A stretch of 64,000 nucleotides of DNA, from UHGV virus genome UHGV-0229283. One strand, given 5' to 3'. Source of the stretch: a virus. The translations under genes and the position numbers were made by a program. This document shows, piece after piece, positions 10,004 to 32,914 of this stretch. Each line of letters starts with the position of its first letter. Positions within the stretch are counted from its first letter, which is position 1. Below the pieces are notes generated by a model that was not told the DNA's origin, did no database searches, and saw only the letters and a list, made by a program, of their open reading frames with translations.

Positions 10004-10121
10004 GGGACGCTACCACCATGCCCGTTCTCTTATGAACTGCTGCATGTTTCCATGCAGAGCAGACTATATCTTCACCCACACTTGGGGTGTCCACCGCTTC
10101 GGGCCGCTTGGCCCTACTCCG

Positions 10122-10523
10122 TTACCGGATAGTCGTTGGGATTTTACCTCTTGCCAAATACCACTCTTCACCACTACAGTAAAGATTGTTGCAAACAGCA
10201 TGTTCTACATTAGATGCACGGCATGATAACTCTATATTTTCCCAGCAATTATTCAATGTGTTTGCATCTAGGTGGTTGACCTCTTCCTCTTCAAGAAGGT
10301 CTCTACCGATCTTTGCCGCACAAATCAACCTGTGCAACAAATAGTGTTTGCCATTTTTCAAACAGATACGCTGATAAAATTTCTTTCCCTTACCTTTGTG
10401 TAGATAGGGCTTCAACTTTCTTAGTTTTCCACGATTGCTGGAGTATATATTACCTTCGTGGTCACAAAAGTATCCGTTTGATATTGGTATTTTAGCCAAG
10501 GTACTTATCTGCTGATTGTCCAT
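10122..10523 (-). CDS. HNH homing endonuclease (HNH_3 type) inside the DNA polymerase gene
   Basis: NGYFCDHEGNIYSS...KLKP......Y..I.L...GK..LHRLI is the I-HmuI-like HNH_3 signature. The ORF lies between the two polymerase fragments. Confidence 0.7.
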   Translation of the reverse strand: MDNQQISTLAKIPISNGYFCDHEGNIYSSNRGKLRKLKPYLHKGKGKKFYQRICLKNGKHYLLHRLICAAKIGRDLLEEEEVNHLDANTLNNCWENIELSCRASNVEHAVCNNLYCSGEEWYLARGKIPTTIR

Positions 10524-10671
10524 TTCATCCTCCTAAAAGGAGAAATCATACATAAATTTTTCAAACTGTCAAGCCCATCCTCGCGGATCACTTTGTAGTA
10601 TTTATGTCTTTAGGATTTCCCAGCAATTCAATGGATGCACCTTATAAATTACTTCATAAGGGGGCTATCAA

Positions 10672-18727: not shown

Positions 18728-20035
18728 CTAAAATTTTCCTGGGAATGTGTCTTTGTAGAATTTAACAATTCTTTGGTCTACGATAATATCACGTTCTTTA
18801 ACCGGACGCAACAATCTTAAACCTTTTGTAGAAGTGGCCCTGCTAAAGGCAACATAGGCCATCCCAGGAGCAAAAGCTCCATAACCAAAGTCTATATTAA
18901 CCTCTGGCAAAGTCAAGCCTTGAGCTTTGTGAATGGTCACTGCATAACCAAGGCGAATGGGTAAGTTTGTGTATGTTCCAACAACAATCTTTTCCAATTC
19001 CTCTTCAGTCTTACCATTCTTGATAACCTTTCTTGGGAAGTATTCAACATTTTCCCAGACATTCTTTTCGATCTCTACAACCTTGCCGTCTTCCAGTTCT
19101 ACATCTACCGAAAACTTCCTTAGGGCCTTGATAATACCCCGTGTTCCGTTTACAAATTTAGGACCGTCTTCATCTGGATTCTGATCATTAACGGTGATCA
19201 TGACACGAGTCCCTACCTTGAGGTGTAGACTCTCAGCAACTGGACGCTGGGCAAAATCTCCTGTTTTGGAGGCTTTGTAAATAACCTCTTCACCCGGTAT
19301 CTGATCGTAATGCTTTTTGTTGATACGTTCCGCCGCGGCATTAGTTGAAGTCAGGGTAATCGCATTCAGTGCTGCACCTTTTGAATAGCACTGATTGTTG
19401 AGGAATTTAACTATTTCATCAATACGCTCGCCTTTCCTCATATGATTCAACAACGATGAAAAATGCACACTGTTTTGACGATAAATCTTGTCAAGAAGTA
19501 CAGGGTATGGATTTATCTCTCCCCAAGTGTCTGAGAAACACGATAATTCTGTGCTGTGGAGTTCGAAGTAAGCGTTTTCTTCAGAATCTGTCAGAACTGG
19601 AGGGTTCTGAAAGAAATCACCAAACATTATGACCTGAAGACCGCCGAAAGCTTTCTTAGGCTCCCTTCTCGCAACACGTAGTTTCTGATCCATTTCCCAC
19701 AATTTGTCGGCTCGCACCATAGATATTTCATCAATAATGATACGCTCAAGAGATTTGCTTTTTAAAAGTTTTTTAGGTTTAGTTTTTACTGTCTTACCAT
19801 CATTTTCTGTGGCTATCCCCATTGATAACCCGAAAGCTCGATGAGTTGTCATTCCATCAACATTAAGTGAAGCGACCCCTGTCGGGGCCACTGTTAATGT
19901 TGAACTTGGATACAGGGATTGGATTGTTTTGATCAGATGGCTCTTGCCACTACCACCAGGTCCCGTAATGAAAACGTTTTTGCCTTCAATGATAGCACCT
20001 AAGGCCTCTTCCGTTCCCACTCCAAAATCAGACAT
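18728..20035 (-). CDS. Dda/Pif1/RecD-like SF1B DNA helicase
   Basis: 435 aa. Walker A ITGPGGSGKSHL. The DEISMV motif II and the length are typical of T4 Dda-like helicases. Confidence 0.8.
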   Translation of the reverse strand: MSDFGVGTEEALGAIIEGKNVFITGPGGSGKSHLIKTIQSLYPSSTLTVAPTGVASLNVDGMTTHRAFGLSMGIATENDGKTVKTKPKKLLKSKSLERIIIDEISMVRADKLWEMDQKLRVARREPKKAFGGLQVIMFGDFFQNPPVLTDSEENAYFELHSTELSCFSDTWGEINPYPVLLDKIYRQNSVHFSSLLNHMRKGERIDEIVKFLNNQCYSKGAALNAITLTSTNAAAERINKKHYDQIPGEEVIYKASKTGDFAQRPVAESLHLKVGTRVMITVNDQNPDEDGPKFVNGTRGIIKALRKFSVDVELEDGKVVEIEKNVWENVEYFPRKVIKNGKTEEELEKIVVGTYTNLPIRLGYAVTIHKAQGLTLPEVNIDFGYGAFAPGMAYVAFSRATSTKGLRLLRPVKERDIIVDQRIVKFYKDTFPGKF

Positions 20036-21270
20036 TAATCCTCCTTATCGAGATAAATTTCGTCCAGGATAGCACCCCTTACACCCACAACAATAACATC
20101 AGGAGCACCTGCTGGCTTTTCTTTTCCTGTCAATACCTCATAGCGGCAGCAGCGGCATTTCTTGTTATTGTAGTTATATGGTACGCTAACAATGTCTGCC
20201 GGGTCAACAGATACCTCAACCACATTACCATAATCACGGGCATATTCCTTGGAGGCGATATGTAAACCCTGGCTACAAGCTTTGGTTGGGTCATCTTCAA
20301 CCATGTTTCTTGGCATAGTGACTGTGGTGTTAGCCCAGTTAGGGACCAAGCCTGTGAACCAGTCACGAGGACCATTCTCAGTGCGTTTAAGACCCTTGTA
20401 GGCCAAGATGTTGCCATTCTCCAGAATCTCGAACTTGTTATGCTCCAAGAAGTCGTACAGCATTTCAACCGATTTGTAAGAAGGATTGAGCATCAGCTTC
20501 CGCATGAACTCGACATAACGGTTATCGAACTTCCCCGTCTCGATATCGGAAACAATACGGCGAGCAATACCGCTTTCTTGTTTGATACCGTGCCAGTACA
20601 GAATTCCGTCTAGCAGCTTCATATCCGGTCCAAGGTCGATTGCCACTTCAGCTTTTGCAGCGATCCCCGCTTCAATAAGCGCTACGGCTTCGTCGATCTT
20701 GTTGTTTAACAGCAACATACCGACGTCGTTAAAGATTTCGCTGTTACTGCCCAGAGTATGAATGGTTCCATCTGGAAGTGTGATGGAAACGTTGCCTGGT
20801 GTCATGATGACAATGGGATCAGCTTTCGTGTCATCAACAACCGAAATCTTAATAGGCACAGGTGTAGGTTCTGGAAGCTGAGGAACAGTAACGCTCACTT
20901 CTACATCAGAAACCACGAACACCACTTCCCAGCGCTTACCACGCTTGCCAAGGTCCTTGACAACTCCCTCCTCTTTGTCATGTCCTGCTGTTGTCTTTGC
21001 ATGATCGATAATCTTCGCATTCTGTACAGTCTTAGAGAATGCTCGGGCCTCTCCACGACTCGCAAAGAACATAGAGGCAGTTGGCGCAGGGTAAGTTTCC
21101 ATATCGAAGGAAATCGTCTTTTCCGGGGAAGCACCAATACTGTCTTTGGGGACAACCATCCAACGCCCCTCTGCCAGCACCGCTGGGGATACACCACGGT
21201 CCACAACCTTCATACCACGACTTGCAGCACAAACACGAGCATCTGCACGGGATTTAAAAAGATCACTCAT
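20035..21270 (-). CDS. hypothetical protein (411 aa), translationally coupled between the GHKL ATPase and the helicase
   Basis: The start overlaps the upstream stop and the stop overlaps the downstream start. No recognisable motif. Confidence 0.55.
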   Translation of the reverse strand: MSDLFKSRADARVCAASRGMKVVDRGVSPAVLAEGRWMVVPKDSIGASPEKTISFDMETYPAPTASMFFASRGEARAFSKTVQNAKIIDHAKTTAGHDKEEGVVKDLGKRGKRWEVVFVVSDVEVSVTVPQLPEPTPVPIKISVVDDTKADPIVIMTPGNVSITLPDGTIHTLGSNSEIFNDVGMLLLNNKIDEAVALIEAGIAAKAEVAIDLGPDMKLLDGILYWHGIKQESGIARRIVSDIETGKFDNRYVEFMRKLMLNPSYKSVEMLYDFLEHNKFEILENGNILAYKGLKRTENGPRDWFTGLVPNWANTTVTMPRNMVEDDPTKACSQGLHIASKEYARDYGNVVEVSVDPADIVSVPYNYNNKKCRCCRYEVLTGKEKPAGAPDVIVVGVRGAILDEIYLDKED

Positions 21271-23258
21271 TATTTCTCTCCTTTGCTATCAATAAATTTA
21301 CGATACTCAGCCACCTCTGGTGAGTTAAAATGCTCCATCGAGATGTGCTTCAGTAACGGGTAACGTTCTTTTACCTTGTTAATCAGGCTTTTCCCAACAC
21401 GAATACGTCCATTGACGATTCTCTTCGCAGTTCTTTCTGCACTATAATAACCTTTAACATGGTAAAGGGTACTAGCCATATTAACCTTTTCCTTGTATTC
21501 AGGATCTTTGACAACCTCTACACCTATTCCCTTTAAGTCGTCCAAGAGAGAGCGATACTCACGCTGTCTGGTTAACTGATTAAGATGATAATCCAACAGG
21601 TTTGAACTTGCAACCTTATAAAGGTCGTCCTGTGTAATCATCCTAACATCATCATCCAGCCAACTCACTCGGTTTAAAGGTACGATGTATAATTTATCAT
21701 CAATACCAAGATCTGACAAGAAGGTCTCCGGTTGATGACGGTTAGAAAGGTACGCCGTAGACCCAAGGTCACAAGTCCCTCGTGCCTGACCACCAGAATA
21801 GATCATGGCATATTTGATATCATCAAATTCCGCACGGGAGATACGTGTTTTCCTAATAGCTCCACTCTGCTCAATGATCCATACTGGATGCCCTGGTTCA
21901 TACAGGCTATAGCCGCCATACTTTTTATCCGATTTCGATGCTGGACGCTTTTCCAAATCCGACAGCTTATGGATCATTCCCGCAAAGAATGGATTATCAC
22001 ACATTTGTGCCACACCAAGATTGTCCGTCAGATAGACGGCCTTGCCTGTTACATCAAACAACTGATTACATTTACTTCTAACCAGCTTATTGTCGTCGTT
22101 GTATACAAGATGGTAACCATTCATCATATCCGCATATGAATAGTCTTTGTCAGTTCTACGCTTCTCCCCGTGGCCGTTGTAAGTTACACATTCCTTGACG
22201 CTTACAGAGTCAACATAATCTCTGAACAATTCCGCAATGTATTTTGCGCCGTATTTTGTAGCAAACCACCCGCCAACTCGCTTCATATACTCCAGAACAT
22301 CCGCAAGTTTTGGAAGCTTACGGAGTTCATGGTAAATTTCTTCACCACGGCGATCAAGGGCCGTCTGAACGAATGTCTTAAGGCGCTCTTCGAAGCCACG
22401 GTCATTCTTGCCCTCGATAGTCCATTCACGTCCCGGATTGACATCGCAATCCCCGATTGGGATGGACACCATCATCAGGGGCCATTCAGGGTTATTGCTC
22501 AGAAACTTTGATTTGTACGGCTGTTGTCCCATAACCACAACGCTATCAGCATTGTTAGATACCGACGAATACATTTCCAGCATCCAACCAGATTCTTCAT
22601 CTTTGAACGTATACTGCACCGGGTAGGTACGGTCTCGAATAGATGAAGTCACAAATGGGTCATTGATCTCGTAAGGGAACTTAGCATAACGCAGGCAACT
22701 GATAATTGCACGGCGGTATTTCTCAGTCTCTGCCGGGTCAACGTTGAATTTGATTTCAACACCATTTTCTTCTATGGTTTTTGACTCGTGGAGAGGCACA
22801 ACCTCAGGTATCCCTTGGTCTTTATGAACAGAGTACACAGTTTTAGTACCATCTTTGATGGAGATGACACTGAACATGTCCGTAACGGTGAACGGGGCCT
22901 TGGAACCAATACCTTTCGCACCGATCAGATCGTTGGATTCACGTTTGGTGGACGACCCCAGCATCATGAAGGTCTGGGTAACCATGTCAAAGTCCATCCC
23001 AATACCACCATCCTTGACAGAATACCACGGTTCTAGGTCAGTTGGGGAGTGGATGATAATCGGTTTATCCCGGCATCCGGCTTCTGTGTGTGCATCTACC
23101 GCATTGAACAGGGGTTCACGACAGGCAGCAAGGATCTTGTCCTCATAAATACCATCGATCAAGATACTGAAAGTTTCAGCATTAATCGCGATACCAGCCT
23201 GATAGCGTTTGACGTTGGTACTAACTTCTACCTTCTTCTCATTACGCTCGATTATCAT
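21270..23258 (-). CDS. GHKL-superfamily ATPase (Hsp90/MutL/MORC-like Bergerat fold N-terminus), 662 aa
   Basis: The N-box EPLFNAVDA and the G1 box VKDGGIGMD resemble Hsp90 (ELISNASDA / DTGIGM). The G2 box GAKGIGSKAPF is present. The remainder is unassigned. Confidence 0.6.
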   Translation of the reverse strand: MIIERNEKKVEVSTNVKRYQAGIAINAETFSILIDGIYEDKILAACREPLFNAVDAHTEAGCRDKPIIIHSPTDLEPWYSVKDGGIGMDFDMVTQTFMMLGSSTKRESNDLIGAKGIGSKAPFTVTDMFSVISIKDGTKTVYSVHKDQGIPEVVPLHESKTIEENGVEIKFNVDPAETEKYRRAIISCLRYAKFPYEINDPFVTSSIRDRTYPVQYTFKDEESGWMLEMYSSVSNNADSVVVMGQQPYKSKFLSNNPEWPLMMVSIPIGDCDVNPGREWTIEGKNDRGFEERLKTFVQTALDRRGEEIYHELRKLPKLADVLEYMKRVGGWFATKYGAKYIAELFRDYVDSVSVKECVTYNGHGEKRRTDKDYSYADMMNGYHLVYNDDNKLVRSKCNQLFDVTGKAVYLTDNLGVAQMCDNPFFAGMIHKLSDLEKRPASKSDKKYGGYSLYEPGHPVWIIEQSGAIRKTRISRAEFDDIKYAMIYSGGQARGTCDLGSTAYLSNRHQPETFLSDLGIDDKLYIVPLNRVSWLDDDVRMITQDDLYKVASSNLLDYHLNQLTRQREYRSLLDDLKGIGVEVVKDPEYKEKVNMASTLYHVKGYYSAERTAKRIVNGRIRVGKSLINKVKERYPLLKHISMEHFNSPEVAEYRKFIDSKGEK

Positions 23259-23427
23259 CTACTTCTCCTACTTTTTGCAGTTATTTATATTTAGTCTAAA
23301 GGCCGCTGTAGCCATACCTATTGCGTATGCTCCACAAATTTGTTCCCAATACATGGGCTGTGACAGTGACAATATCACACACAGAGGGGTAATGCAAACA
23401 AATATTACTAAGAATTTCTTCATGAGT

Positions 23428-23985
23428 TCATGCCCCCTGAGAATCTTCTTTCTCTTTATAATATATATGGTTATCGATCCTGACTGTGCGTAGCATGGCC
23501 TTTGTCCAGTAGGGTTTTACTTTTCGTGAATGGTAGTGGGTTGCTCCATGTGTTATGTCCAGAGCATCGTAGACGATCCTGTTTTGTTTATGAATCTTGA
23601 TCAGAACTTTTGCAAACTCTTGTGCCTTCTCCCAGCGATCCTTTTCATAGACTTTAAACGTTGTTCCTGAAGATGTCCAGGAGAATTGTCCGGGCTGGTA
23701 GACGATCTTTTTTACTGTTCCAGGGTACTTATCGTTATCCTTACGATTCAAAGTTACGAATGCGATCGACATTAACCCGGAATCACTCTCTCCACGAGCT
23801 TCTTTGTACATGTTGCAGGCTAAAATGTTTACCACTGTATCATCTTTTTTGCACAGATGAATTACCTTGGGCTTCTTTGCGTTGTCTTTAGCCAGTACAG
23901 GTGTGGTGGCTAGAGAAAACACACAGGCGGTTGCCAGAATCAGATTTTTCAATTTCAAATTTACACTCCAAATTAAAAGCCCCAT
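23428..23985 (-). CDS. SleB-like cell wall hydrolase (Hydrolase_2) with signal peptide; candidate endolysin
   Basis: CNMYKEARGESDSGLMSIAFVTLNRKD...YQPGQFSW is the SleB/CwlJ signature. The N-terminus is hydrophobic. The annotated ATG lies inside a hairpin, so the true start may be the downstream TTG (MKLKNLILATAC...). Confidence 0.65.
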   Translation of the reverse strand: MGLLIWSVNLKLKNLILATACVFSLATTPVLAKDNAKKPKVIHLCKKDDTVVNILACNMYKEARGESDSGLMSIAFVTLNRKDNDKYPGTVKKIVYQPGQFSWTSSGTTFKVYEKDRWEKAQEFAKVLIKIHKQNRIVYDALDITHGATHYHSRKVKPYWTKAMLRTVRIDNHIYYKEKEDSQGA

Positions 23986-25300
23986 TGCGGGGCTAAGATG
24001 CTATAATTTTACTTATGGGTCAACCCCTTATTAAGGATATTTTTTGCAGCATTAATGTCTGCATTCTCAGTATGACCGCAAGAAATACATAAAAATTTAG
24101 CTTGTGTTTTCCTGTTTTCTTTTGATACATACCCACATCCAGAGCACGTCTGAGAGGTATATGCTGGATTAACAATCATTAACTCACTTCCGTACCTGAT
24201 CGTTTTGTAAGCTAACTGCATACGTACCGAGTATAGACTCATATTTAGAATCTCTCGGTTAAGCCCTGTTTTAGCCTTCACATTTTTACCAGGCTGTTCA
24301 ATCGTTCCTTTTGACGATTTCGTCATATTGGAAACTTTCAAATCTTCCAGAACAATTTTGTAGGATTTTGTAGCCAACTTTTTAGTAAGTTTGTGGCAGG
24401 CGTCTTGGCGAATACTCCCTTGTTTGGACTTGCGTACAGTGATCATTTCGCCAAGCTTTTTGTATCTTGCGCTGCCTTTCTGGCATTTGGCTTGCTTACG
24501 TTGAAGAATACGAATACGTTCTTCAAGAGCCTTTAACGATTCTTTAGGATACTCCTCATGCCATGCTGTTTCACTATCTGAATCATAGCATGTTGCATAC
24601 TGTGCAACACCTAAGTCAACACCAACACACATTTCCCTTTTATTAGAGATCTGATAATAATCTTCGTCAGGTATTTCAAAGATGAAAGCAACATACCAGT
24701 CACCAGCAGTTTTGCTGAACGTGGTATTCATAAGTTTCCCATTCAGGATACGTGCAGGTATCTTATCTCCCAGTTTCATCTTTCCAAGTCTGTTGTGGAT
24801 GATGTAAGCCCCAACGTCATCAAGATTCTTTTCCTTTTTGAAGTCTGTATTGCTTAATTTAAAACCTTTCCTGCGATGCTTTGATTGAAACTTGGGTCTG
24901 CCTCCAAGCTTTTTGAAGCATCGCTGCCATGCCTCTTTGAGGTCATACTTTATAGCAAGCTGGCCAACACTACCGGGTATCCCATTTAACCATGTGTGGA
25001 TTCCTGAGCCTAACATTACTCCAGATTTTGTTGGCTTTTTAAAACCGAGAGGGTATTTACCTTGGTTAAAAAATTTATCGTATTCATTTATTTTTGCCAA
25101 TTTCCATTTTTCATCAGGAGATAGGGTTTCTTGGTCTATGAAACATAACCCTAATGCATAATTAAAAGCATAACGTCTGGCGTTGCTCCAATGAAGAAGA
25201 GTGCTGTTTTGGCGATTATTTGTACCAACTTTTGTTTTAAAACCTACCATCATGATAATCATCTACCTGCGCTGTTAAAGTTCATTCCGACAGTACCACA
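23975..25300 (-). mobile_element. IS200/IS605-family tnpB-only element (boundaries approximate)
   Basis: A TnpB gene with no tnpA. A stable hairpin (AGCCCCGCAATGGGGCT) sits at its 3' end where the omega RNA / right end would lie. Exact ends were not determined. Confidence 0.4.
24009..25262 (-). CDS. tnpB: TnpB (IS605 OrfB-family RNA-guided endonuclease)
   Basis: 417 aa. RuvC-I VGVDLGV, RuvC-II IVLEDLKVSNM, zinc finger CSGCG...CISCGH and RuvC-III NADINAAKNI are all present. Confidence 0.85.
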   Translation of the reverse strand: MIIMMVGFKTKVGTNNRQNSTLLHWSNARRYAFNYALGLCFIDQETLSPDEKWKLAKINEYDKFFNQGKYPLGFKKPTKSGVMLGSGIHTWLNGIPGSVGQLAIKYDLKEAWQRCFKKLGGRPKFQSKHRRKGFKLSNTDFKKEKNLDDVGAYIIHNRLGKMKLGDKIPARILNGKLMNTTFSKTAGDWYVAFIFEIPDEDYYQISNKREMCVGVDLGVAQYATCYDSDSETAWHEEYPKESLKALEERIRILQRKQAKCQKGSARYKKLGEMITVRKSKQGSIRQDACHKLTKKLATKSYKIVLEDLKVSNMTKSSKGTIEQPGKNVKAKTGLNREILNMSLYSVRMQLAYKTIRYGSELMIVNPAYTSQTCSGCGYVSKENRKTQAKFLCISCGHTENADINAAKNILNKGLTHK

Positions 25301-25347
25301 CTACGTGAGGAACGTGATAGAATGGAGAGTTCGTGCATACAGTCCAG

Positions 25348-25495
25348 AGGTTATCCCCACATATTTTGGGGGCACCTGATATCTGTGATACGCTAGGAGG
25401 ACTACATCGGTTTATCCCACATTGTGGGGAACACGGGCAGCGATTTGTAGCGATCCGGGTTGGCCTCGGTTTATCCCCACGCATGTGGGGAACAC
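25348..25495 (-). CRISPR. orphan mini CRISPR array: 3 type I-E-like repeats (29, 27, 28 nt) and 2 spacers of exactly 32 bp; no cas genes
   Basis: Read on the minus strand, R3 at 25467..25495 is GTGTTCCCCACATGCGTGGGGATAAACCG. R2 at 25408..25434 is GTGTTCCCCACAATGTGGGATAAACCG. R1 at 25348..25375 is degenerate. The spacers are 25435..25466 and 25376..25407. Repeat flanks GTGTTCCCC and GGGGATAAACCG and the 6-4-6 hairpin geometry match the enterobacterial I-E repeat consensus (from memory: GTGTTCCCCGCGCCAGCGGGGATAAACCG). Confidence 0.7.
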
Positions 25496-25786
25496 TCTAA
25501 CCGTAAACATATGGCAACCTTAGTGTTTTAAGCCCACTTAAAATCTACCGAGTTGTGTTCCCAAATTTGTAGAGATAGGAGCAAAGCTCCTGAAGGACTT
25601 ATGCAACTAAGTTGCAGCCCCCTTCTTCCTTCATAGACTCGCTAATGCTTATCTCCAGAAGCATAACTTCGGCGTTAACCACACCTAGAGGATTGGCTCC
25701 CAACAAGAGACACTATACAGTGTCTCTTAATTGGAGTCAACAATTATTTTCTAAGAATATCCCCTGAAACTGTTTTCACATTACCT

Positions 25787-25978
25787 TCAATAAACTTCTG
25801 TTCTGGTCTCACCACTTTTAATGATCCTCGCTTTTTGGGCATGATAGACAAACTGTTTGTTCTCTTTAACAAACTTTTTGCCCTGTTCTTCGTCTTCGAA
25901 AATCAAGGTATCACACTCGGTGAAAGAATGTCCAGGCCTTTTTTCAACAGACCGCGTTGTGGCTACAATGAGGGACAT
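25787..25978 (-). CDS. hypothetical protein (63 aa) between the RNA ligase and the array leader
   Basis: Its start is coupled to the RNA ligase stop. Confidence 0.35.
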   Translation of the reverse strand: MSLIVATTRSVEKRPGHSFTECDTLIFEDEEQGKKFVKENKQFVYHAQKARIIKSGETRTEVY

Positions 25979-27069
25979 TAGCCCTCCTCACTCAGACGAG
26001 TCATGTACCATGCACGAGCTTTGTTGCTGATAAACTTGCCAACATCTTTCATGGTCATGGAGCTGGCTTCCAGAACATCACCCTCTTCCTTGTTGATGTC
26101 TCGGTTAATCCACCCAATGAATTCACCGATCTTAGTCTTGTCAAGACCGACTTCGCTGACACCCTGCTCAAGACGTGCTTCCGTCACAGCGTACTCAACG
26201 AACTCACGCATACTTGCGAGGCGTTCTGGGTCGATTGCCGCCAGGGTCTTAACTTTGGATACAGAGTGTTTATCACCTTTGACTTTAAACCACAGGCCAG
26301 AGATTTTAGAAAGCTCAGGATCTTTTGGAGACCAGACAATGCCTTCACCGATACCTTCTACGCCAAAGAACTTACCTGCCGGGCATTTGTTTTCCACTTC
26401 ACGAGTCAGTTCTGCCAGGTCATTCTGGACAAGTTCCGGCTCATTGAATGGGATATTAGCCATCCAGTAACCGAAGTCAAGGATACTGTAGATACGAGCA
26501 TCCGGCAATCCAATTCCAAACTGGAACGTTGGTGGTAGCCAGTTGAGGGTATCCGTTGCCTCATCCCGTCCCACAGCCACACGGAAGATAGCAAAGAACG
26601 GCTCTACTTCAGTGATGGCAACACCTTTCTGAATGCCACGCCCAGCCCATTCACCAGCAATTTCAACCGGGAACTGGAACTCGACGTCATTGACTTCACA
26701 CAGGTATTTAACCTGTGAAAGCAACTCTGCGGTGTCTTTTCGAGACATGAAGGCCGCGAAGCCATTGTTATCGTCGCCTACAGTCACGACACGCTCTTTG
26801 GACTGGAAGACAACTTCATCCTCAGAGTGGAATACCACACTGCCATTAGTGCCGTGAAGCTTAACCGTACCGATGTACGGGATCAGGTACGCTTCCGGTG
26901 GCAACACCTTTCGCTTGATATTACCCTCTTCATCAATACCGTCGAACGTCAGTTTATCATGCATGGTGCGGATAACCTGACGGAACTGTGCGGTGCTTGG
27001 GTATTTAATTGGTTTTGTCAATTTTATTCTCCTCAAATAATTTGCTAATGTGTCCGCCAGAAAGTTCAA
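25978..27069 (-). CDS. Rnl2-like RNA ligase (ATP-dependent nucleotidyltransferase)
   Basis: GTVKLHGTNGSV matches the KxDG/KIHGTN motif I of T4 Rnl2. Length is 363 aa. Confidence 0.7.
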   Translation of the reverse strand: MNFLADTLANYLRRIKLTKPIKYPSTAQFRQVIRTMHDKLTFDGIDEEGNIKRKVLPPEAYLIPYIGTVKLHGTNGSVVFHSEDEVVFQSKERVVTVGDDNNGFAAFMSRKDTAELLSQVKYLCEVNDVEFQFPVEIAGEWAGRGIQKGVAITEVEPFFAIFRVAVGRDEATDTLNWLPPTFQFGIGLPDARIYSILDFGYWMANIPFNEPELVQNDLAELTREVENKCPAGKFFGVEGIGEGIVWSPKDPELSKISGLWFKVKGDKHSVSKVKTLAAIDPERLASMREFVEYAVTEARLEQGVSEVGLDKTKIGEFIGWINRDINKEEGDVLEASSMTMKDVGKFISNKARAWYMTRLSEEG

Positions 27070-27262
27070 GAACTACATATCTTTGTTGGTCATCAAAATA
27101 CTGCTTCCCACCCCATGTTGCGTGGACAAGATTCCACGCATTCTTGGCAGCGCCAGAGCTAATCCATCCAATCTTGGCTTTGTGGTTCCAGAGGCATCTG
27201 TCAACAGTGTCATAGATGACAAAAACCAATTTACTCATCAGGACCCTCCAGCTTCCAGCCAC
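27005..27262 (-). CDS. hypothetical protein (85 aa or shorter)
   Basis: Overlaps the ligase start. The true start is probably the internal Met (MSKLVFV). Confidence 0.35.
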   Translation of the reverse strand: MAGSWRVLMSKLVFVIYDTVDRCLWNHKAKIGWISSGAAKNAWNLVHATWGGKQYFDDQQRYVVLELSGGHISKLFEENKIDKTN

Positions 27263-27554
27263 GACTATTCAGCCATTCGTCAATCTGAATACCCGTGCCG
27301 TCACCACTTGGTTTCTCTACCCCAAGTAGTAGTATGGCAAAGCTCTGACCACGAGGGGCGTTATAGGTTAACACCGTATTACCCACATAAAGGTCGATCT
27401 TTTTGGTATGTGCTACCATACCGTCTCTCAATTTAACCACGATAATCCAGTCCCCCCTGTGGATAATCCACATTTTGTCATTTCCCGAATGGCAGCGATC
27501 TGTTCTGATGTCAGAGGGCCGTCGTCTGGAGGGTAGTAACCAGGGATTTCCCAT
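27231..27554 (-). CDS. hypothetical protein (107 aa or shorter)
   Basis: Overlaps the macro gene 3' end. Uncertain start. Confidence 0.3.
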   Translation of the reverse strand: MGNPWLLPSRRRPSDIRTDRCHSGNDKMWIIHRGDWIIVVKLRDGMVAHTKKIDLYVGNTVLTYNAPRGQSFAILLLGVEKPSGDGTGIQIDEWLNSRGWKLEGPDE

Positions 27555-28039
27555 TCTTTCAAGACATAAACTGTCACATCACAATCAAAGAAGATTGATT
27601 TGATCATTGCCTCGATGACGTTCCAGTCACCGCCTGCAAGGCCCGCACCAATTTTAGGGAAGCCAATTTTGTAGTCAGCCATAGAACCGTCTGTAAAGCT
27701 CTGTAAGAGCTTTTTCATTTCAACCATCGAATCATACAAGGCATTGTAGTCGAGGTCCCTGAGGCCCTGTTTACGGAGAGTATAGCCATATTGTGAGTAC
27801 AGATTAAACCCTGCGACTGTACCGTCCTTCAGGAAGGCCATTGTATAGGTTCCAAGTTTGGCTTTATCACCCTTCTCGGTCTTGAGATCCGCAGCGTACA
27901 TTTTGGGGAACGCTTCTTTGACCAACGGGGCGATACCCCTGCCCATAGCGCAATGGCAATTACAACCGTGAGCGAACACGTTAACTTCACCGTTCTTAAC
28001 GGCCTCGATCAGGTCTCCAACTTTATATTTCAAGCTCAT
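27428..28039 (-). CDS. macro domain protein (Poa1p-like ADP-ribose-1''-phosphate phosphatase family)
   Basis: VFAHGCNCHCAMGRGIAPL resembles the Poa1p-like macro signature (hCxs.d..mGaGIA). Length is 203 aa. Confidence 0.55.
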   Translation of the reverse strand: MSLKYKVGDLIEAVKNGEVNVFAHGCNCHCAMGRGIAPLVKEAFPKMYAADLKTEKGDKAKLGTYTMAFLKDGTVAGFNLYSQYGYTLRKQGLRDLDYNALYDSMVEMKKLLQSFTDGSMADYKIGFPKIGAGLAGGDWNVIEAMIKSIFFDCDVTVYVLKEWEIPGYYPPDDGPLTSEQIAAIREMTKCGLSTGGTGLSWLN

Positions 28040-28183
28040 TTACAACTCCTCTCTTTAAACTCTTTCATGGATTCAATAGCATCCGAACGATTTTTCGCGC
28101 AGACAACAAACACCCGATGACGTCGATAGGTGTATCCTGCCATAACACAGTCGGCGGTGTCAAGCCACCAACACTCGTTTAGT

Positions 28184-28390
28184 TCAGAAGCCGGGAATTT
28201 GAATTTTGCCATCTTTTCTCTCCACGTAATAAGGTAATCGCTTGATCAAGTCTTGAGGAGCACCATTTTCTGTCCAAGTGAGGCCTTGGTCACCAGAAAC
28301 ATAGCCTTTACCGTTAACAAACTTGCGCCAGATATTACGAAACTGGTTTTTGTAGATCATTCGATCACACTCCAGCCTTCGTCCTGCCAT
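28184..28390 (-). CDS. hypothetical protein (68 aa)
   Basis: Co-oriented ORF. Confidence 0.3.
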   Translation of the reverse strand: MAGRRLECDRMIYKNQFRNIWRKFVNGKGYVSGDQGLTWTENGAPQDLIKRLPYYVERKDGKIQIPGF

Positions 28391-28611
28391 GCTTCACCAC
28401 GATACCAGTCTGCCATAGGGCAACCGTCTTCTGCGTAGATACGCCCATCAACCATTTCGAACCATTCATCAGAAGTGAAATATTGGTTACGGATACGTTT
28501 ACCTTCACGCATGGCCTGCTTTGCTTGTTCCCAGGTTAAACAATGCATATCAATCATCCTTTCCGAATTTAACAACGTCTTCGTAGGACAACCCCGAACG
28601 AAGAAGAGCAT
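28357..28611 (-). CDS. hypothetical protein (84 aa)
   Basis: Co-oriented ORF. Confidence 0.35.
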   Translation of the reverse strand: MLFFVRGCPTKTLLNSERMIDMHCLTWEQAKQAMREGKRIRNQYFTSDEWFEMVDGRIYAEDGCPMADWYRGEAWQDEGWSVIE

Positions 28612-28912
28612 CTTTAACTTTTTGTTTTTTCTCTTGCAAAACCTGCAAGTTTGATTTTACAACACCTTTGAAAGAACCACCTTCATAACAGGGGGGTTCG
28701 ATCTCCGCAATCAAGTGATTAAGATCTGATTCTGGAGTTGCTTCAATGACCAAGCTATTCTCAACGTCAATCCAGTATTGGTAGTGAGCGTGTTTGCCAA
28801 TACTTTCCAGGAATTTGATTGCATGTGCCGGACTGTTTGCCTTTACGTAACCAAGTAGTTTAGTTGTACGGCCTTCGCAATCACCTTCGGTAGTAACTTT
28901 GTAAATTTGCAT
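28550..28912 (-). CDS. hypothetical protein (120 aa)
   Basis: Co-oriented ORF. Confidence 0.4.
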   Translation of the reverse strand: MQIYKVTTEGDCEGRTTKLLGYVKANSPAHAIKFLESIGKHAHYQYWIDVENSLVIEATPESDLNHLIAEIEPPCYEGGSFKGVVKSNLQVLQEKKQKVKDALLRSGLSYEDVVKFGKDD

Positions 28913-28973
28913 GAGTCTATCCTCGTTTTGTTTGATACATGAAGAATAACAGCCCCAAGAGGGGCTGTCAATA

Positions 28974-30171
28974 TTATTTTCCTTCGATAAGCTTAATATC
29001 TTCAGCGTAGTTGACCTGGAAGTCTGCCATAATTTTCATTATGATGGGCTTTGCCTTCAACAAACGTGCAGGAAGCTTGTCACGGTTGCTTGCAGTGGTC
29101 AACAGCGCCTTACCGAATGCATTTTCCTTGATGAACGACAAGAAAATAGAGCTTACGAAGTCTCGGTTCTGGTCCATAAAGTGATCATAAAGATACTGTA
29201 GGAAGTTTCCAGAGAATTCAATAATCTGGTCATCCGTGTAGTTGGTATCTGCAATAGCCTTACGCAACCAAATAGCGCCTTCTGAACCCAAAATCCACAG
29301 GCTATCGGATGGAAGGTCTCCAGGATCTTGGGCAGTACCGTTCATAACGTCTTCGATCGGGACCATATTACGAATCTTAGTGTGGTATGCCCACAGTTCA
29401 GCCATTAAAGGTGTGCCAATGAAGCCCTGAAGAGCAACCTTAGCCAGGTTGGCAGGCAGCAAATTAGCATCGTAATCGTACAATACATCACTGGCGTAAG
29501 TTAAAGTACGCGGTGTGGCGAAAGAAGGACACCCGATATCCAGCATTTCTTCATAGTTTTCAATAGCACTGTTCTTACGAGACAGAAAACCAATGATTGA
29601 CGAATGAATACCGTTCTGCATGGCATAGTCTTCGATGAAGACCGATGCGCTATAGGTAAGCTCTACCAGCATCATACGGTTAGCCAAAGGAGCTTCCAGT
29701 GCAGTCACGGCAGTACCATCCCCAGCACGGTTACCCGCAGCAACCAGTACAGCCCCTTCAGGGAACTGGTAGGTCCCGATTCGACGGTCCAGCATGATTT
29801 GGAATGCCAGTTTCTGAAGGTAAGGCTCTGCGTGGAGAAGCTCATCAAGAAACACAATACCTTTCCAGTTAGGATCACGGGGCCAGAAATCCGGCAAGGC
29901 GTACACTGTGCGAGTAACACCATTGTCATCGGTGTATGGAATCTGCACCCCGGTGAGGTCAGTGTTATCTTTATCAGCCAAGCGGAAGTCTACCAGGTTA
30001 TCACCAGGCCCGAAAAGAGAGTCTGCTATTTGCTTCACGGCCTGACTTTTACCAATACCTGCCCCACCGAAGATCATCAGTGAACGTTTGTGACGCTGGC
30101 AAAATTGTACGAGTGGTGGAAGATCTCGCAAAGTGATCCAGTTACCAGAAAAGATATTACGACTTGACATT
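28974..30171 (-). CDS. MoxR/CobS-like AAA+ ATPase (AAA_5)
   Basis: Start moved to MSSRNIF, which is preceded by AGGAGA. Walker A GGAGIGKS. Walker B VFLDELLHA. The arginine-finger region is AAGNRAGDG. Confidence 0.7.
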
Positions 30172-30233
30172 ATTTGTCTCCTGTAAATGAAATTCGGGAG
30201 AAGGATACATTTGATCCTCCCCCATTGCAATGA

Positions 30234-30656
30234 TTATTTATCCACCCATACGCGATTTTCATCACACCAATCATAAAAATCTTTCATGATGTCGTTGAAT
30301 TCCCGCAAGGGTGTATAATGGCGAATAGGATCAGCATCATACCCCTCATTTTCACATTCTGCAATAGAGGCTAGCCAATCCGGGTATGTTGGAACATCCC
30401 GGAAATAGCCAATTATATCACACAGCTCATAATCGCAGCCATTATCCCAGTTGTCGTAGTTTGACTCGCGAGGGAATTTCCGTTCAAGACGGCGGGCTAT
30501 CTCTTTAGCAAGCTCATGCACCGTTTTATCTGTCCAGTCTTCCCGACCACATTCACCACTCCGCTTATCCCAGATGTCGCGGAGGTCCAGAGTTGTTTTC
30601 CAGTTAGGCATTGTTCCTCTCCTTATATCTTCCTCGCCAAGGGCCGAAACGCCCAC
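30234..30656 (-). CDS. hypothetical acidic protein (140 aa)
   Basis: Co-oriented ORF rich in D/E/W/Y. Confidence 0.45.
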   Translation of the reverse strand: MGVSALGEEDIRRGTMPNWKTTLDLRDIWDKRSGECGREDWTDKTVHELAKEIARRLERKFPRESNYDNWDNGCDYELCDIIGYFRDVPTYPDWLASIAECENEGYDADPIRHYTPLREFNDIMKDFYDWCDENRVWVDK

Positions 30657-30751
30657 ATTTTAGACATTCCCAGCTGCGTTGCCCGTAAATGATGATCTTG
30701 CCGATTTCTTTATTTCGACAATTTGGGCAAGAGTATACTATCTTACCACCT

Positions 30752-31279
30752 TTAGACAGCATTTTTCACCTTCCTCAACTCGAATTCATCGCCATAGCCT
30801 ATCATATGGCCTTTGGCCGTGATCACCTTTTCTCCAAACACACTGCCAGTGCATTTACCAATGAAAACTTCTGGCATATCTTCTTCTGAAAGAAGAATAT
30901 CCACAGTAAATTTACCATGATAGTGCCTTGCGTTGTAATGCGGCCCTTCATCATCTGTTTTATACCAGTATTTACCATTCCAGCGGTATTTGTTATGCCT
31001 GTACCATACATATGACCCCCAGGTGTCTTGTGCTATATGGTCCACTTTGGTAGTAATAAGTCGGCCTGTATTACGAAGTAGCTCGTCATATTGCTTTTCG
31101 TAAACTTCCACACGATTTTTCATACTGTTGTAATAGTTCTGGTAACGATCAGCTCTGTTGACCATAACCCTGAGAAGGTTCTCAATAGGCGTACCTTTCT
31201 CAAGATGTTCTTCATAAAGTTGTTGACTTGTTTTGCTTTCCATATCAAATCTCCTTAAGAAATTCATGACAAATACCAT
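30752..31279 (-). CDS. hypothetical protein (175 aa)
   Basis: Co-oriented ORF. Confidence 0.45.
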   Translation of the reverse strand: MVFVMNFLRRFDMESKTSQQLYEEHLEKGTPIENLLRVMVNRADRYQNYYNSMKNRVEVYEKQYDELLRNTGRLITTKVDHIAQDTWGSYVWYRHNKYRWNGKYWYKTDDEGPHYNARHYHGKFTVDILLSEEDMPEVFIGKCTGSVFGEKVITAKGHMIGYGDEFELRKVKNAV

Positions 31280-31449
31280 TTAAAACCACAGTTCGGGCAA
31301 CAAGGTTCCTTAATCCGAAGCTGATCGGGGGCCTTTACAGGAGCATCTTTCAGGTTATAAGTCGAAAAACATCTCGCACATACTACAACCTTGTCAGGAA
31401 TTTCCATTTCGAACCAAGGAAGGCCATTTAATTTTTTCGTAATGATCAT
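31264..31449 (-). CDS. small zinc-ribbon protein (61 aa)
   Basis: CARC...CCPNCG four-Cys motif. Confidence 0.4.
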   Translation of the reverse strand: MIITKKLNGLPWFEMEIPDKVVVCARCFSTYNLKDAPVKAPDQLRIKEPCCPNCGFKWYLS

Positions 31450-31955
31450 AATGTAGCCAACATGTTGATCGCTTCGTGGTGTTCTTTCATCTTTGTCAGA
31501 CGAAGATACATGTCATGATACTTACGGACACGTAACAAATCCTTATCTGTCAGGCCTTTCAGGCGACGAACATCAGAGTTATGGCGCAGGTCTGCAAGCT
31601 TCACACGTACCGCATCATAGTTTTGGGCCAGGCGGTTAAAATACTCTTCCGGTGTCTGATTAGGGGTTTTCGTCAGAAGAACCACAGCATCCTTCACACG
31701 GTTCGAGAAGCCTAGCAGAACCAGATCCGCAGCGGTAACATCGGTGTCTTCAACCACATCATGAAGCGCGGCGATAGCCATAAGCTGAAAATCATCGGTC
31801 TTCAGGTAGTGCATTACCTTCAGCGGATGAAGGATGTACGGGTTACCACCCTTATCTTTCTGATTCAGGTGGCCTTCTGCTGCAATTTTAATTGCTAAAG
31901 CAAGTTCTTGGGCCGGACTTAAAGCTTGAATACAACTCTTGTCTGTTGATACCAT
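31446..31955 (-). CDS. HD-domain hydrolase, SpoT/Mesh1-like small (p)ppGpp-type hydrolase
   Basis: NPYILHPLKV...AALHDVVEDT matches the RelA/SpoT HD hydrolase signature. Length is 169 aa. Confidence 0.6.
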   Translation of the reverse strand: MVSTDKSCIQALSPAQELALAIKIAAEGHLNQKDKGGNPYILHPLKVMHYLKTDDFQLMAIAALHDVVEDTDVTAADLVLLGFSNRVKDAVVLLTKTPNQTPEEYFNRLAQNYDAVRVKLADLRHNSDVRRLKGLTDKDLLRVRKYHDMYLRLTKMKEHHEAINMLATL

Positions 31956-32914
31956 TTGACAGCTTCCTCTAGGTTAAAGGGTTTTATGTTCAGTCTATCG
32001 AAAGATTTTACGTTGTCAAGCCAAAATTCATCTTCATACCCTGCGATCGACATCATCATCAGTTCTTCTTCTGTTGGGGAGTCCCCCTCCATCATACTCT
32101 GTAACTTGGGGTCATATTCCAAGTGGAACATTGTTTCTTTCGGGGAACAAACGAACATTGCCTTACGTGCCTTATTAGCGATCTTTCTGTTCATGATGTT
32201 GATAACCGAATGATTCAGTTGGCTACAAACACGATCGAACGCTGAAGGCTCAAGATAGTCAGAGTAAAGAACCAAATCACCACTGATAATCCTTACATTT
32301 TTAAGGGTGAATCTCTCCCCATTATGGGCCATCCAAGATTGGATAGGGGCATTTTTTTGATAGCCGGTGTATTCGACAACCAAACGGAGATCAAGATCAT
32401 CTCCGTGTGACATCCCTACCAAAAGCTGCTTTACACACTCAAGAAAATACTTAGTATGGTAGTTAAAATTCCAGAACCCACTAAGAAATGCTTCGCCAAA
32501 ACCATGACCGTGAATATTGATAGAGACTGTTTCTGCGAAGCGATGTGTCCAAGGGTCACCACCCGTAATATGTGTTTGGTGGTCTATTTCCATACGTGAA
32601 ACATTTGTCTTCCGATTCATATCAAAACTATAATCCATGACATCCCCTGGAAGCCATTGCCAATAAAAAGGGCTACCATGCGTAGGAAGTTTATCAAGAC
32701 ATGACAAAACTATTTCCAATATCGGGTTAGAGTCCTGTACCCCTTGGAGATAATCTCTAAAGCGGGTGATGGGATTGTCAACATATTTGTCCATCTCAAG
32801 AGTTGACAGAAATCTCTCTTGAGCAGCCGCCTTCCCTTGTAACAACTTATCTATGAAATCCCGCTCCTCATCCCAAGTATAGTTTGGTTTTACATTAATA
32901 TCTACTTTGCTCAT
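31919..32914 (-). CDS. hypothetical protein (about 331 aa; start at MSKVDINV with GAGGG RBS)
   Basis: First gene of the minus-strand block. An internal ATG is preceded by GAGGGTAAGTG. Confidence 0.5.
   Translation of the reverse strand: MSKVDINVKPNYTWDEERDFIDKLLQGKAAAQERFLSTLEMDKYVDNPITRFRDYLQGVQDSNPILEIVLSCLDKLPTHGSPFYWQWLPGDVMDYSFDMNRKTNVSRMEIDHQTHITGGDPWTHRFAETVSINIHGHGFGEAFLSGFWNFNYHTKYFLECVKQLLVGMSHGDDLDLRLVVEYTGYQKNAPIQSWMAHNGERFTLKNVRIISGDLVLYSDYLEPSAFDRVCSQLNHSVINIMNRKIANKARKAMFVCSPKETMFHLEYDPKLQSMMEGDSPTEEELMMMSIAGYEDEFWLDNVKSFDRLNIKPFNLEEAVKWYQQTRVVFKL

Follow-up and report, generated by a model that had tools for sequence, protein, structure and literature searches.

A short CRISPR array inside a bacteriophage genome raises the question of which nuclease the array serves and how its spacers are obtained. 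The array considered here lies at 25348-25495 on the minus strand of virus genome UHGV-0229283, of which a stretch of 64,000 nucleotides (nt) was analyzed (hereafter, the window). It was originally predicted to be a Cas-less, type I-E-like mini-array that would depend on Cascade and Cas3 of the host. The repeats, spacers and minus-strand orientation were found where the original prediction had placed them, and the first repeat, R1, is identical to native repeats of Erwiniaceae; this is a genuine I-E-format CRISPR mini-array in a phage genome. However, the description of the array as Cas-less or orphan had to be abandoned, because it adjoins tnpB and each array of this TnpB clade is paired with its own omegaRNA core. 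The array is probably part of a phage-borne, TnpB-derived, type V-like system that is filled in trans by the I-E Cas1-Cas2 proteins of the host and that targets rival mobile elements.

The RNA preceding the array is the omegaRNA guide scaffold of TnpB. When the scaffolds of 14 modules, each consisting of a scaffold and an array, were aligned, RNAalifold identified 26 consensus pairs, 13 of them with compensatory changes, and such changes were also present in a helix of variable length at alignment columns 81-85/166-170. A covariance model built from the 76-nt scaffold core (named R1, but distinct from repeat R1) matched every module of the close relatives, as well as loci L138 and L139, at 46-98 bits, and gave a weak match or none in L006, L136 and L137. 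The single match in the window leaves its tnpB without any other guide-RNA scaffold. Of 75 control loci with unrelated TnpBs, 24 were matched by the same model, each time on the coding strand and at the 3' end of tnpB, which is the canonical position of an omegaRNA; because of these matches, the scaffold is identified as a TnpB guide RNA. Furthermore, each array has its own copy of the scaffold, even where two or three arrays of differing repeat type surround one tnpB (L004, L005 and L139). No Rfam family matches the repeats or the scaffold.

Throughout this clade, a TnpB-derived RuvC effector is evolutionarily linked to a CRISPR array. The order of promoter, approximately 230 nt of conserved RNA, array and tnpB recurs in Salmonella phage KE23 (Seunavirus) and Klebsiella phage KP13-16 (Stephanstirmvirinae). 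These phages are of different lineages, and they share conserved repeats and upstream RNA, while their spacers are entirely different; with the window, the architecture is conserved across three phage lineages. An additional body of evidence comes from 13 related protein clusters, ranging from 93% to 48-49% identity and drawn mostly from phage-sized assemblies of the Sequence Read Archive (SRA; Logan contigs). The relatives carry one to three modules, situated upstream of tnpB, directly after its stop codon, or both, and modules persist at TnpBs of 44-57% identity. At least four repeat types are present among them, all I-E-like: GTGTTCCCCAC...GGGGATAAACCG, ATCTTCCCCAC...GGGGGTGTTTC, GTCTATCCCGCG...GGGGATGAACCG and GTGTATCCCGCG...GGGGATGAACCG. 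A strict I-E-like repeat motif was found at 12 of 15 TnpB loci of the clade (44-93% identity) and at none of 160 control loci, which were more distant TnpBs from IMG/VR and JGI metagenomes. The suggestion that the repeats might be a conserved IS605 left end is ruled out by their absence from all of these generic loci and by the relatives, which retain the repeats and carry different spacers.

The TnpB protein itself appears functional, as judged from its sequence. It scored 207 bits with the NCBIfam model guided_TnpB (cutoff, 100), and the RuvC residues D216, E306 and D402 and the zinc finger CxxC...CxxC are intact. Ratios of nonsynonymous to synonymous substitution (dN/dS) of 0.05-0.17 among phages that possess only the upstream module indicate that it is under purifying selection. 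The mechanically called open reading frame (ORF) starts at 25262 (MIIMMVGF...); because all homologues begin at the methionine of MM(V/I)GFKT, the real start is probably 25253. The statement that the 64 kb contain no cas genes stands for those of type I-E, as tblastn searches of the window with Cas1, Cas2, Cas3 and CasA-E of E. coli K-12 yielded a best E-value of 0.15, but the ORF adjoining the array encodes a TnpB, a member of the ancestor family of Cas12 effectors.

The repeats derive from authentic I-E sequences. The full 29-mer of R1 occurs once in the window when up to three mismatches are allowed, and none of 100 shuffled sequences matched it, ruling out a chance or low-complexity origin. 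It is identical to the native I-E repeat in long arrays of Erwinia sp. OLFS4, Pantoea sp. BAV 3049 and Izhakiella australiensis, and loop variants were seen in Serratia, Alloalcanivorax and others, in a scan that took one genome per bacterial species. The repeats contain the I-E stem-loop and 8-nt 3' handle, ATAAACCG, which are intact in R1 and degraded in R2 and R3. The exact I-E flanks that had been assigned to all three repeats apply to R1 but not to R2, which has lost one G of its GGGG run and is 2 nt short, or to R3, which is degenerate at both ends. Likewise, the three repeats and two spacers are real, but the array extends further toward tnpB by an older spacer, S3, and a decayed fourth repeat, R4. 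All three window spacers are 32 nt in length, and nearly all intact units of the relatives consist of 29 + 32 nt (a 61-nt unit). A second repeat that lacks one G of the GGGG run (...GTGGGATAAACCG) was observed in four arrays with unrelated flanking spacers, namely those of the window (25408-25434), KE23 (L001), KP13-16 (L002) and L090.

The leader was predicted to span 25496-25786, and only part of this assignment survives: the last ~58 nt are leader-like, whereas the 5' portion at 25617-25692 is the TnpB omegaRNA core. The window leader shares a CGGTAGA motif and a terminal TTAGA with the leader of Erwinia sp. OLFS4, which extends from the cas2 stop codon to the array (...AAAAAATCGGTAGAATAGCAGGGTGATGTAAAACTCTTTATATTCAATGGTATAAGCTAAGA, directly before the repeat), and with the end of the E. 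coli K-12 CRISPR-I leader (...AAAAATGCTTTAAGAACAAATGTATACTTTTAGA, likewise). The likeness to native I-E leaders is much closer in L092 and in KP13-16, where the leader ends in ...AAATCGGTAGATTTTGAACTGGTTAAAAACTCTTTGGTATTCAAATGCATACTTTTAGA before the repeat, than in the more diverged window copy. Transcription of the minus strand from the leader side, as proposed, fits a sigma-70-type promoter, TTGACT-17-TATAGT, and the polarity from leader to array to tnpB is borne out. The upstream modules of KE23, KP13-16 and L004 are preceded by the same conserved promoter, which is largely conserved in L005 and L088-L092 too.

Comparison of relatives reveals arrays that differ at their leader ends. Array length varies from one spacer in L088, which has a TnpB of 93% identity and occupies the genomic site of the window, to three in L089 and four in L090. 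Trailer-side units are decayed, while leader-side spacers are unique and often match their targets perfectly. L092 and L094 have an identical TnpB protein, and L094 contains one extra leader-proximal unit. In addition, S3 of the window and spacer 2 of L090 have their first 18 nt in common, although their carriers are distant.

The spacers are directed against plasmids and other mobile elements. Thirty-one spacers were pooled from the window and related loci and searched against phage, plasmid and E. coli collections. S1 agrees at 32 of 32 positions with K. pneumoniae plasmid pKP-2683-1-6.5 (NZ_CP122577.1, 2853-2884), where the 5' flank is AAG, as anticipated for a spacer aimed at a mobile element with an AAG-type protospacer adjacent motif (PAM), and S3 matches the same plasmid at 28 of 32 positions (617-648), again with an AAG flank. 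This 6.5-kb plasmid codes for a primase-helicase and a recombinase. None of the three collections yielded a match to S2, whose first 20 nt also had no exact match in IMG/VR. Altogether, 11 protospacers were identified for the window and its relatives, all of them on the strand expected from minus-strand transcription, with 5' flanks of AAG (seven), GAG (two), ATG (one) and GGG (one), and four spacers are perfect full-length matches to mobile elements. Among the relatives, the targets are an E. coli island beside tRNA-Thr, a 120-kb plasmid of Klebsiella that carries a capsid gene, and integrated elements of E. coli. Targeting of other phages is unsupported, as the only match among 50,697 phage records was to the flank of one cassette itself. 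Because two spacers matched one 210-nt stretch of E. coli chromosomes, copying of spacers from host CRISPR arrays was also considered, and was ruled out: the stretch is ordinary island DNA by tRNA-Thr in which PAMs are present and repeats are absent. One family of capsid-gene elements, represented by K. pneumoniae plasmid p2B30155 (L099) and the chromosome of E. coli 2017-03-3CC (L102), is matched by spacers of two phages (KP13-16 S2 and L090 S1). Since it exists as a 120-kb plasmid in Klebsiella and in integrated form in E. coli, it is probably a phage-plasmid or prophage family.

An AAG PAM combined with a 29 + 32-nt unit may be read as a signature of adaptation by I-E Cas1-Cas2, a reading that is qualified because selection by the effector could contribute to the same PAM pattern. 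Adaptation in trans is suggested by this PAM, the 32-nt spacer and 61-nt unit, the polarity of the array and the spacer differences among relatives; because the leader and repeats are authentic I-E sequences, Cas1-Cas2 of the host could add spacers to the array. In the proposed mechanism, a single promoter would transcribe the omegaRNA scaffold, the grafted I-E leader, the I-E repeats with their 32-nt spacers, and tnpB. During infection, host I-E Cas1-Cas2, together with integration host factor (IHF), would add spacers at the leader end. The phage TnpB would be the likely effector and would accept AAG-type target-adjacent motifs (TAMs). It would use the scaffold in conjunction with repeat-spacer units, either through an anti-repeat:repeat duplex or through a repeat hairpin that replaces the terminal hairpin of the omegaRNA. 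Rival mobile elements of the host would then be cleaved by TnpB at AAG-flanked targets; for the window phage, the element would be the small Klebsiella primase-helicase plasmid. The role of the system would be conflict with plasmids, satellites or prophages, plus homing in some relatives.

Two connections between scaffold and repeat might allow such use. A candidate anti-repeat at 25578-25554 pairs with GTGTTCCC and GTGGGGATA of the repeat (positions 1-8 and 16-24) to form 17 bp at -24.8 kcal/mol (RNAduplex), and this duplex is present in the minimum free energy (MFE) fold of the window RNA, with the leader as the connecting loop. A module with an ATCTTC...GGGGGTG repeat has GAAGAT and CATCTCTAC in place of the anti-repeat segments of the window. 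Cognate scaffold-repeat pairs are stronger than non-cognate pairs by 4-8 kcal/mol, and native I-E leaders are without such complementarity to their repeats. An anti-repeat resembling that of a trans-activating CRISPR RNA (tracrRNA) is suggestive only. With respect to the second connection, generic omegaRNAs terminate in GGAAUCCCC-stem-loop-GGGGAGGAUGUCAA, after which comes the guide, and the I-E repeat likewise reads GUGUUCCCC-loop-GGGGAUAAACCG followed by the spacer. This shared layout may explain why an I-E repeat could be co-opted, and the repeat may serve as a stand-in for the terminal hairpin of the omegaRNA, which is compatible with anti-repeat pairing. The corresponding generic 3' ends, GGAATCCCC-stem-loop-GGGGAGGATGTCAA before the guide as compared with GTGTTCCCC-loop-GGGGATAAACCG before the spacer of the I-E repeat, were seen in control loci L185, L199, L203, L205 and L219, and at 3600-3700 of L220.

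Several observations weigh against a TnpB effector fed by host adaptation. In shuffle tests, the anti-repeat signal was modest, with a z score of -1.6 in the window, where 30 of 500 shuffles were as good, and scores of up to -3.2 elsewhere, and the type C/D downstream modules gave no signal in this energy test. The complementary segments are, moreover, at non-homologous alignment positions in upstream and downstream modules. The idea of a simple co-varying anti-repeat at one homologous position is weakened by these differing positions and by the modest energy test. Approximately 100 nt, comprising the anti-repeat region and leader, separate the omegaRNA core and hairpins from R1, unlike the arrangement of characterized omegaRNAs. 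The repeats keep a complete Cas6e hairpin, the 8-nt handle and 32-nt spacers, all of which the I-E machinery needs and TnpB does not obviously need. The AAG flank could be explained by Cas1-Cas2 selection alone and says nothing of the TAM of the effector. Finally, the exact R1 repeat was not found in the scanned representative Klebsiella or E. coli genomes, and the damage to R2 and R3 leaves S1 as the only window spacer behind an intact repeat.

The alternative that best survives, although it is unlikely, is that the mini-array serves the Cascade of the host. In this model, host Cas6e would cut the transcript, Cascade would load the resulting CRISPR RNAs (crRNAs) and Cas3 would destroy the plasmid or prophage that is targeted, while TnpB would serve only as a selfish carrier of the cassette from phage to phage; alternatively, the crRNAs might be used by TnpB and Cascade alike. 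This would account for the retention of the full I-E repeat, with its Cas6e hairpin and ATAAACCG handle, and of spacers of exactly 32 nt, the crRNA length required by Cascade. The AAG, GAG and ATG flanks constitute the interference-proficient PAM set of E. coli I-E. The modules mimic differing I-E repeat variants, as though tuned to differing hosts, and viral mini-arrays that exploit host CRISPR machinery have been documented (PMC11656645). However, reliance on Cascade leaves unexplained the omegaRNA core of each array, the clade-wide association down to 44% TnpB identity, and the purifying selection on TnpB in phages that have only the upstream module and no other scaffold. I-E interference is missing or silenced in many strains of Klebsiella and E. 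coli, which counts against it further, and the impaired hairpins of R2 and R3 would hamper Cas6e processing of both crRNAs of the window. Dependence on host Cascade and Cas3, as proposed in the original prediction, is thus possible, but sole dependence is no longer the simplest explanation, given the private omegaRNA cores and a tnpB that has no other scaffold.

It is very improbable that the transcript acts as an RNA decoy or anti-CRISPR (Racr- or crlRNA-like), whereby the repeats, possibly with the anti-repeat, would sequester Cas6e or Cascade or pair with host pre-crRNA, and the spacers would be incidental. Phage-encoded repeat mimics that inhibit CRISPR are known (PMC10651486; bioRxiv 10.1101/2024.10.29.618823), and the scaffold holds sequence complementary to I-E repeats, but the four perfect spacer matches to mobile elements, the correct PAM of most protospacers and the variation of spacer content between relatives would be unexpected for a decoy. 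Least probable of all is an inert relic, a bacterial I-E fragment picked up beside a TnpB element and decaying without function, since the visible decay of R2, R3, R4 and S3 and the rarity of the cassette (two of 50,697 GenBank phages, and none in database searches of IMG/VR and plasmids) are offset by intact leader-proximal repeats with perfect recent spacers in many loci, by an architecture conserved over three phage lineages and distant TnpBs, and by purifying selection on TnpB.

The favored reading, a TnpB-derived system with I-E-type arrays, includes homing in some relatives. Phage backbone directly follows the downstream module's last intact repeat in L092-L094. The same junction in the element-free Stephanstirmvirinae phages FKP3 and KP13-26 reads ...CATATAAAGAAAG followed by GCATTGATTGG... 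(...GAAAG, then GCATTG...); homology restarts precisely with the last G of the repeat, a ~870-nt replacement lies to the left, and the flank is AAG. The geometry is that of a TnpB homing guide, which would cut empty sites so that the element is copied in by recombination. In L092-L094, tnpB has an omegaRNA at its 3' end, and the guide derives from the flank. The window shows no such arrangement: 14 nt separate the tnpB stop codon from the phage backbone, and the sole scaffold lies upstream of tnpB. The window cassette has lost its downstream module.

Two related loci show other arrangements. In L139 (Logan contig of SRR12284446, 450-2901), a tnpB of 57% identity is preceded by two tandem scaffold-array modules that differ in repeat variant and is followed by a third scaffold core. 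In Klebsiella phage FBKp34 (L220; MW394390.1, 2000-3700), the promoter and omegaRNA core (81 bits) are kept at the cassette site of KP13-16, while the remainder is replaced by an unrelated classical TnpB (375 amino acids (aa), 29% identity) that has an ordinary omegaRNA-like end on either side. In this phage, displacement or targeting of one TnpB element by another may have occurred.

No description of this TnpB-array system was found in the literature searched, and it resembles several known systems in part. Cas12r-CRISPR of Thermus Lalka phages consists of a 564-aa TnpB-like effector and a short array, without a tracrRNA, in which I-E-like 29-bp repeats alternate with 32-33-bp spacers and the PAM is A-rich (ARG); it has no adaptation genes, I-E adaptation by the host in trans has been proposed, and its spacers match small integrative elements with primase and helicase genes (bioRxiv 10.64898/2026.04.20.719267). 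The present system is similar in that a phage TnpB-like nuclease stands beside a short I-E-format array with an A-rich PAM, no adaptation genes and primase-helicase targets. As described, the two are set apart by the size of the effector, which at 414 aa is that of a TnpB, as opposed to 564 aa in the thermophiles, and by the omegaRNA-type scaffold of ~200 nt before each array, whereas Cas12r needs no tracrRNA. They differ also in the placement of the array, which is downstream in Cas12r while the modules here are upstream, downstream or both, and in the repeat identical to a native I-E repeat, the I-E-like leader and the lytic enterobacterial phage carriers.

In Cas12n (type V-N, formerly V-U4), exemplified by RdCas12n, a tracrRNA is used and the PAM is 5'-AAN (AAG in AcCas12n) (PMC12216341). 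Its effector is a monomeric, miniature TnpB-like protein, adaptation genes are absent and the AAN PAM is a rare one, all of which recalls the window system, and RdCas12n (PDB 9J09) is the nearest solved structure by sequence (E-value, 3e-37; 132 bits). However, characterized Cas12n proteins are actinobacterial, chromosomal and roughly 500-540 aa in length, and the window protein scores higher, at 190-330 bits, against generic TnpBs. It passes only the TnpB model of NCBIfam, and all NCBIfam type V models remain below cutoff, so membership in Cas12n is ruled out. Because the protein is nearer to ordinary TnpBs than to Cas12n, the clade is an independent lineage. Assignment to the Cas12 hacker or Cas12p proteins is ruled out as well, as these are 500-700 aa in length and use a GTN PAM.

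With canonical TnpB-omegaRNA systems of IS200/IS605 elements (obligate mobile element-guided activity, OMEGA), the window system shares the protein family and the omegaRNA core, and the flanking DNA forms the last guide of the downstream module in relatives, as it does in TnpB homing. Unlike these elements, it has no tnpA and no clean transposon ends, the window scaffold is upstream of tnpB, and the guide region is a multi-spacer I-E array rather than a single flank-derived guide. Viral mini-arrays use host effectors, and type IV-A3 plasmids gain spacers via host I-E Cas1-Cas2 (PMC11656645). Short arrays, host-type repeats, spacers against competing mobile elements and I-E adaptation in trans are points of resemblance, but neither is fused to the scaffold of an RNA-guided nuclease, and type IV-A3 brings its own multi-subunit effector.

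The origin of type V arrays has been left open between duplication of an omegaRNA segment and association with existing arrays (Altae-Tran et al.; PMC10691335). More tentatively than the system itself is proposed, and with the balance somewhat against it, the clade could represent an extant intermediate in the emergence of a class 2 CRISPR system through capture of a class 1 leader and repeat. In such an event, the I-E repeat would replace the terminal hairpin of the omegaRNA and host Cas1-Cas2 would reprogram a transposon nuclease; two effectors, host Cascade and the TnpB of the phage, may share the transcript, which may also cause the cassette to home from one lytic phage to another. The graft of an authentic I-E-like leader and repeat on an omegaRNA, with intermediates of one to five repeats, makes the capture route directly testable. 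The idea developed for Cas12r in thermophiles, that host I-E adaptation supplies a phage type V system with spacers, is also extended to lytic phages that infect Klebsiella, Salmonella and E. coli. The carrier lineages include candidates for phage therapy, and the carriers have small plasmids and integrated elements of the host as their targets. A 414-aa nuclease that used an AAG-type TAM would, if active, make an exceptionally small editor whose PAM is rare.

Table 1. Features of the TnpB-array cassette and its surroundings in the window.
Feature	Position	Strand	Evidence or sequence
Whole cassette	23995..25790	-	1,796-nt replacement insert between endolysin gene and small ORF/RNA ligase gene
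Promoter, sigma-70 type, TTGACT-17-TATAGT	25712..25740	-	10/12 consensus positions; drives scaffold, array and probably tnpB
omegaRNA core scaffold, 76 nt	25617..25692	-	Covariance model R1, 96.5 bits, sole match in window
Variable hairpin and conserved hairpin AGGAGCTTTGCTCCT of scaffold	25579..25616	-	Compensatory changes in variable-length helix
Candidate bipartite anti-repeat CTATCTCTAC-AAATTT-GGGAACACA	25554..25578	-	RNAduplex pairing with repeat
I-E leader-like segment, 58 nt	25496..25553	-	CGGTAGA motif ... TTAGA directly before R1
Repeat R1, intact, 29 nt	25467..25495	-	GTGTTCCCCACATGCGTGGGGATAAACCG
Spacer S1, 32 nt	25435..25466	-	AGGCCAACCCGGATCGCTACAAATCGCTGCCC
Repeat R2, weakened hairpin, 27 nt	25408..25434	-	GTGTTCCCCACAATGTGGGATAAACCG
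Spacer S2, 32 nt	25376..25407	-	ATGTAGTCCTCCTAGCGTATCACAGATATCAG
Repeat R3, degenerate, 28 nt	25348..25375	-	GTGCCCCCAAAATATGTGGGGATAACCT
Old spacer S3, 32 nt	25316..25347	-	CTGGACTGTATGCACGAACTCTCCATTCTATC
Fourth repeat R4, strongly decayed	25287..25315	-	ACGTTCCTCACGTAGTGTGGTACTGTCGG, read directly from sequence
tnpB, 414 aa	24009..25253	-	Pfam OrfB_IS605 and Cas12f1-like_TNB; NCBIfam guided_TnpB
Endolysin gene	23428..23985	-	

The window phage is a lytic Klebsiella phage. Positions 20000-32000 resemble Klebsiella phage vB_KpnM_BIS47, with 97.5% identity over 83% of the region length, and other ~145-kb phages of the same group, such as Proteus phage Mydo (Vequintavirinae, genus Mydovirus). 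Homology with Mydo ends at 23994 and restarts at 25791, and the cassette takes the place of 585 nt of Mydo sequence; it is a replacement of backbone, with no clean insertion and no defined left or right transposon ends (LE/RE). The region 23995-25790 is absent from almost all close relatives of the phage. On the minus strand, the cassette reads promoter, omegaRNA core, possible anti-repeat, leader, array and TnpB. No tnpA is found beside tnpB; the neighbors are the endolysin gene on one flank and, on the other, small ORFs beside the RNA ligase gene.

Four collections, IMG/VR, the JGI metagenomes, PLSDB plasmids and complete E. coli genomes, were used as controls only and contained no near relative of the protein or scaffold; close relatives of the TnpB protein were absent from 72,556 PLSDB plasmids, and the scaffold was absent from 5,426 complete E. 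coli genomes. At the left end of the cassette (25744-25790), ~47 nt resemble the 3' end of a 134-aa ORF of Salmonella phage KE23, the likeness reading ...GAAGGTAATGT.AAAAC.GTTTC.GG.GATATT.TTAGAAAATAA. This segment is likely a recombination scar and a sign of movement of the cassette between phage backbones. Elsewhere in the phage genome, a group I catalytic intron is located at 10040-10683 on the minus strand (Rfam RF00028; 66 bits, against a gathering score of 50).

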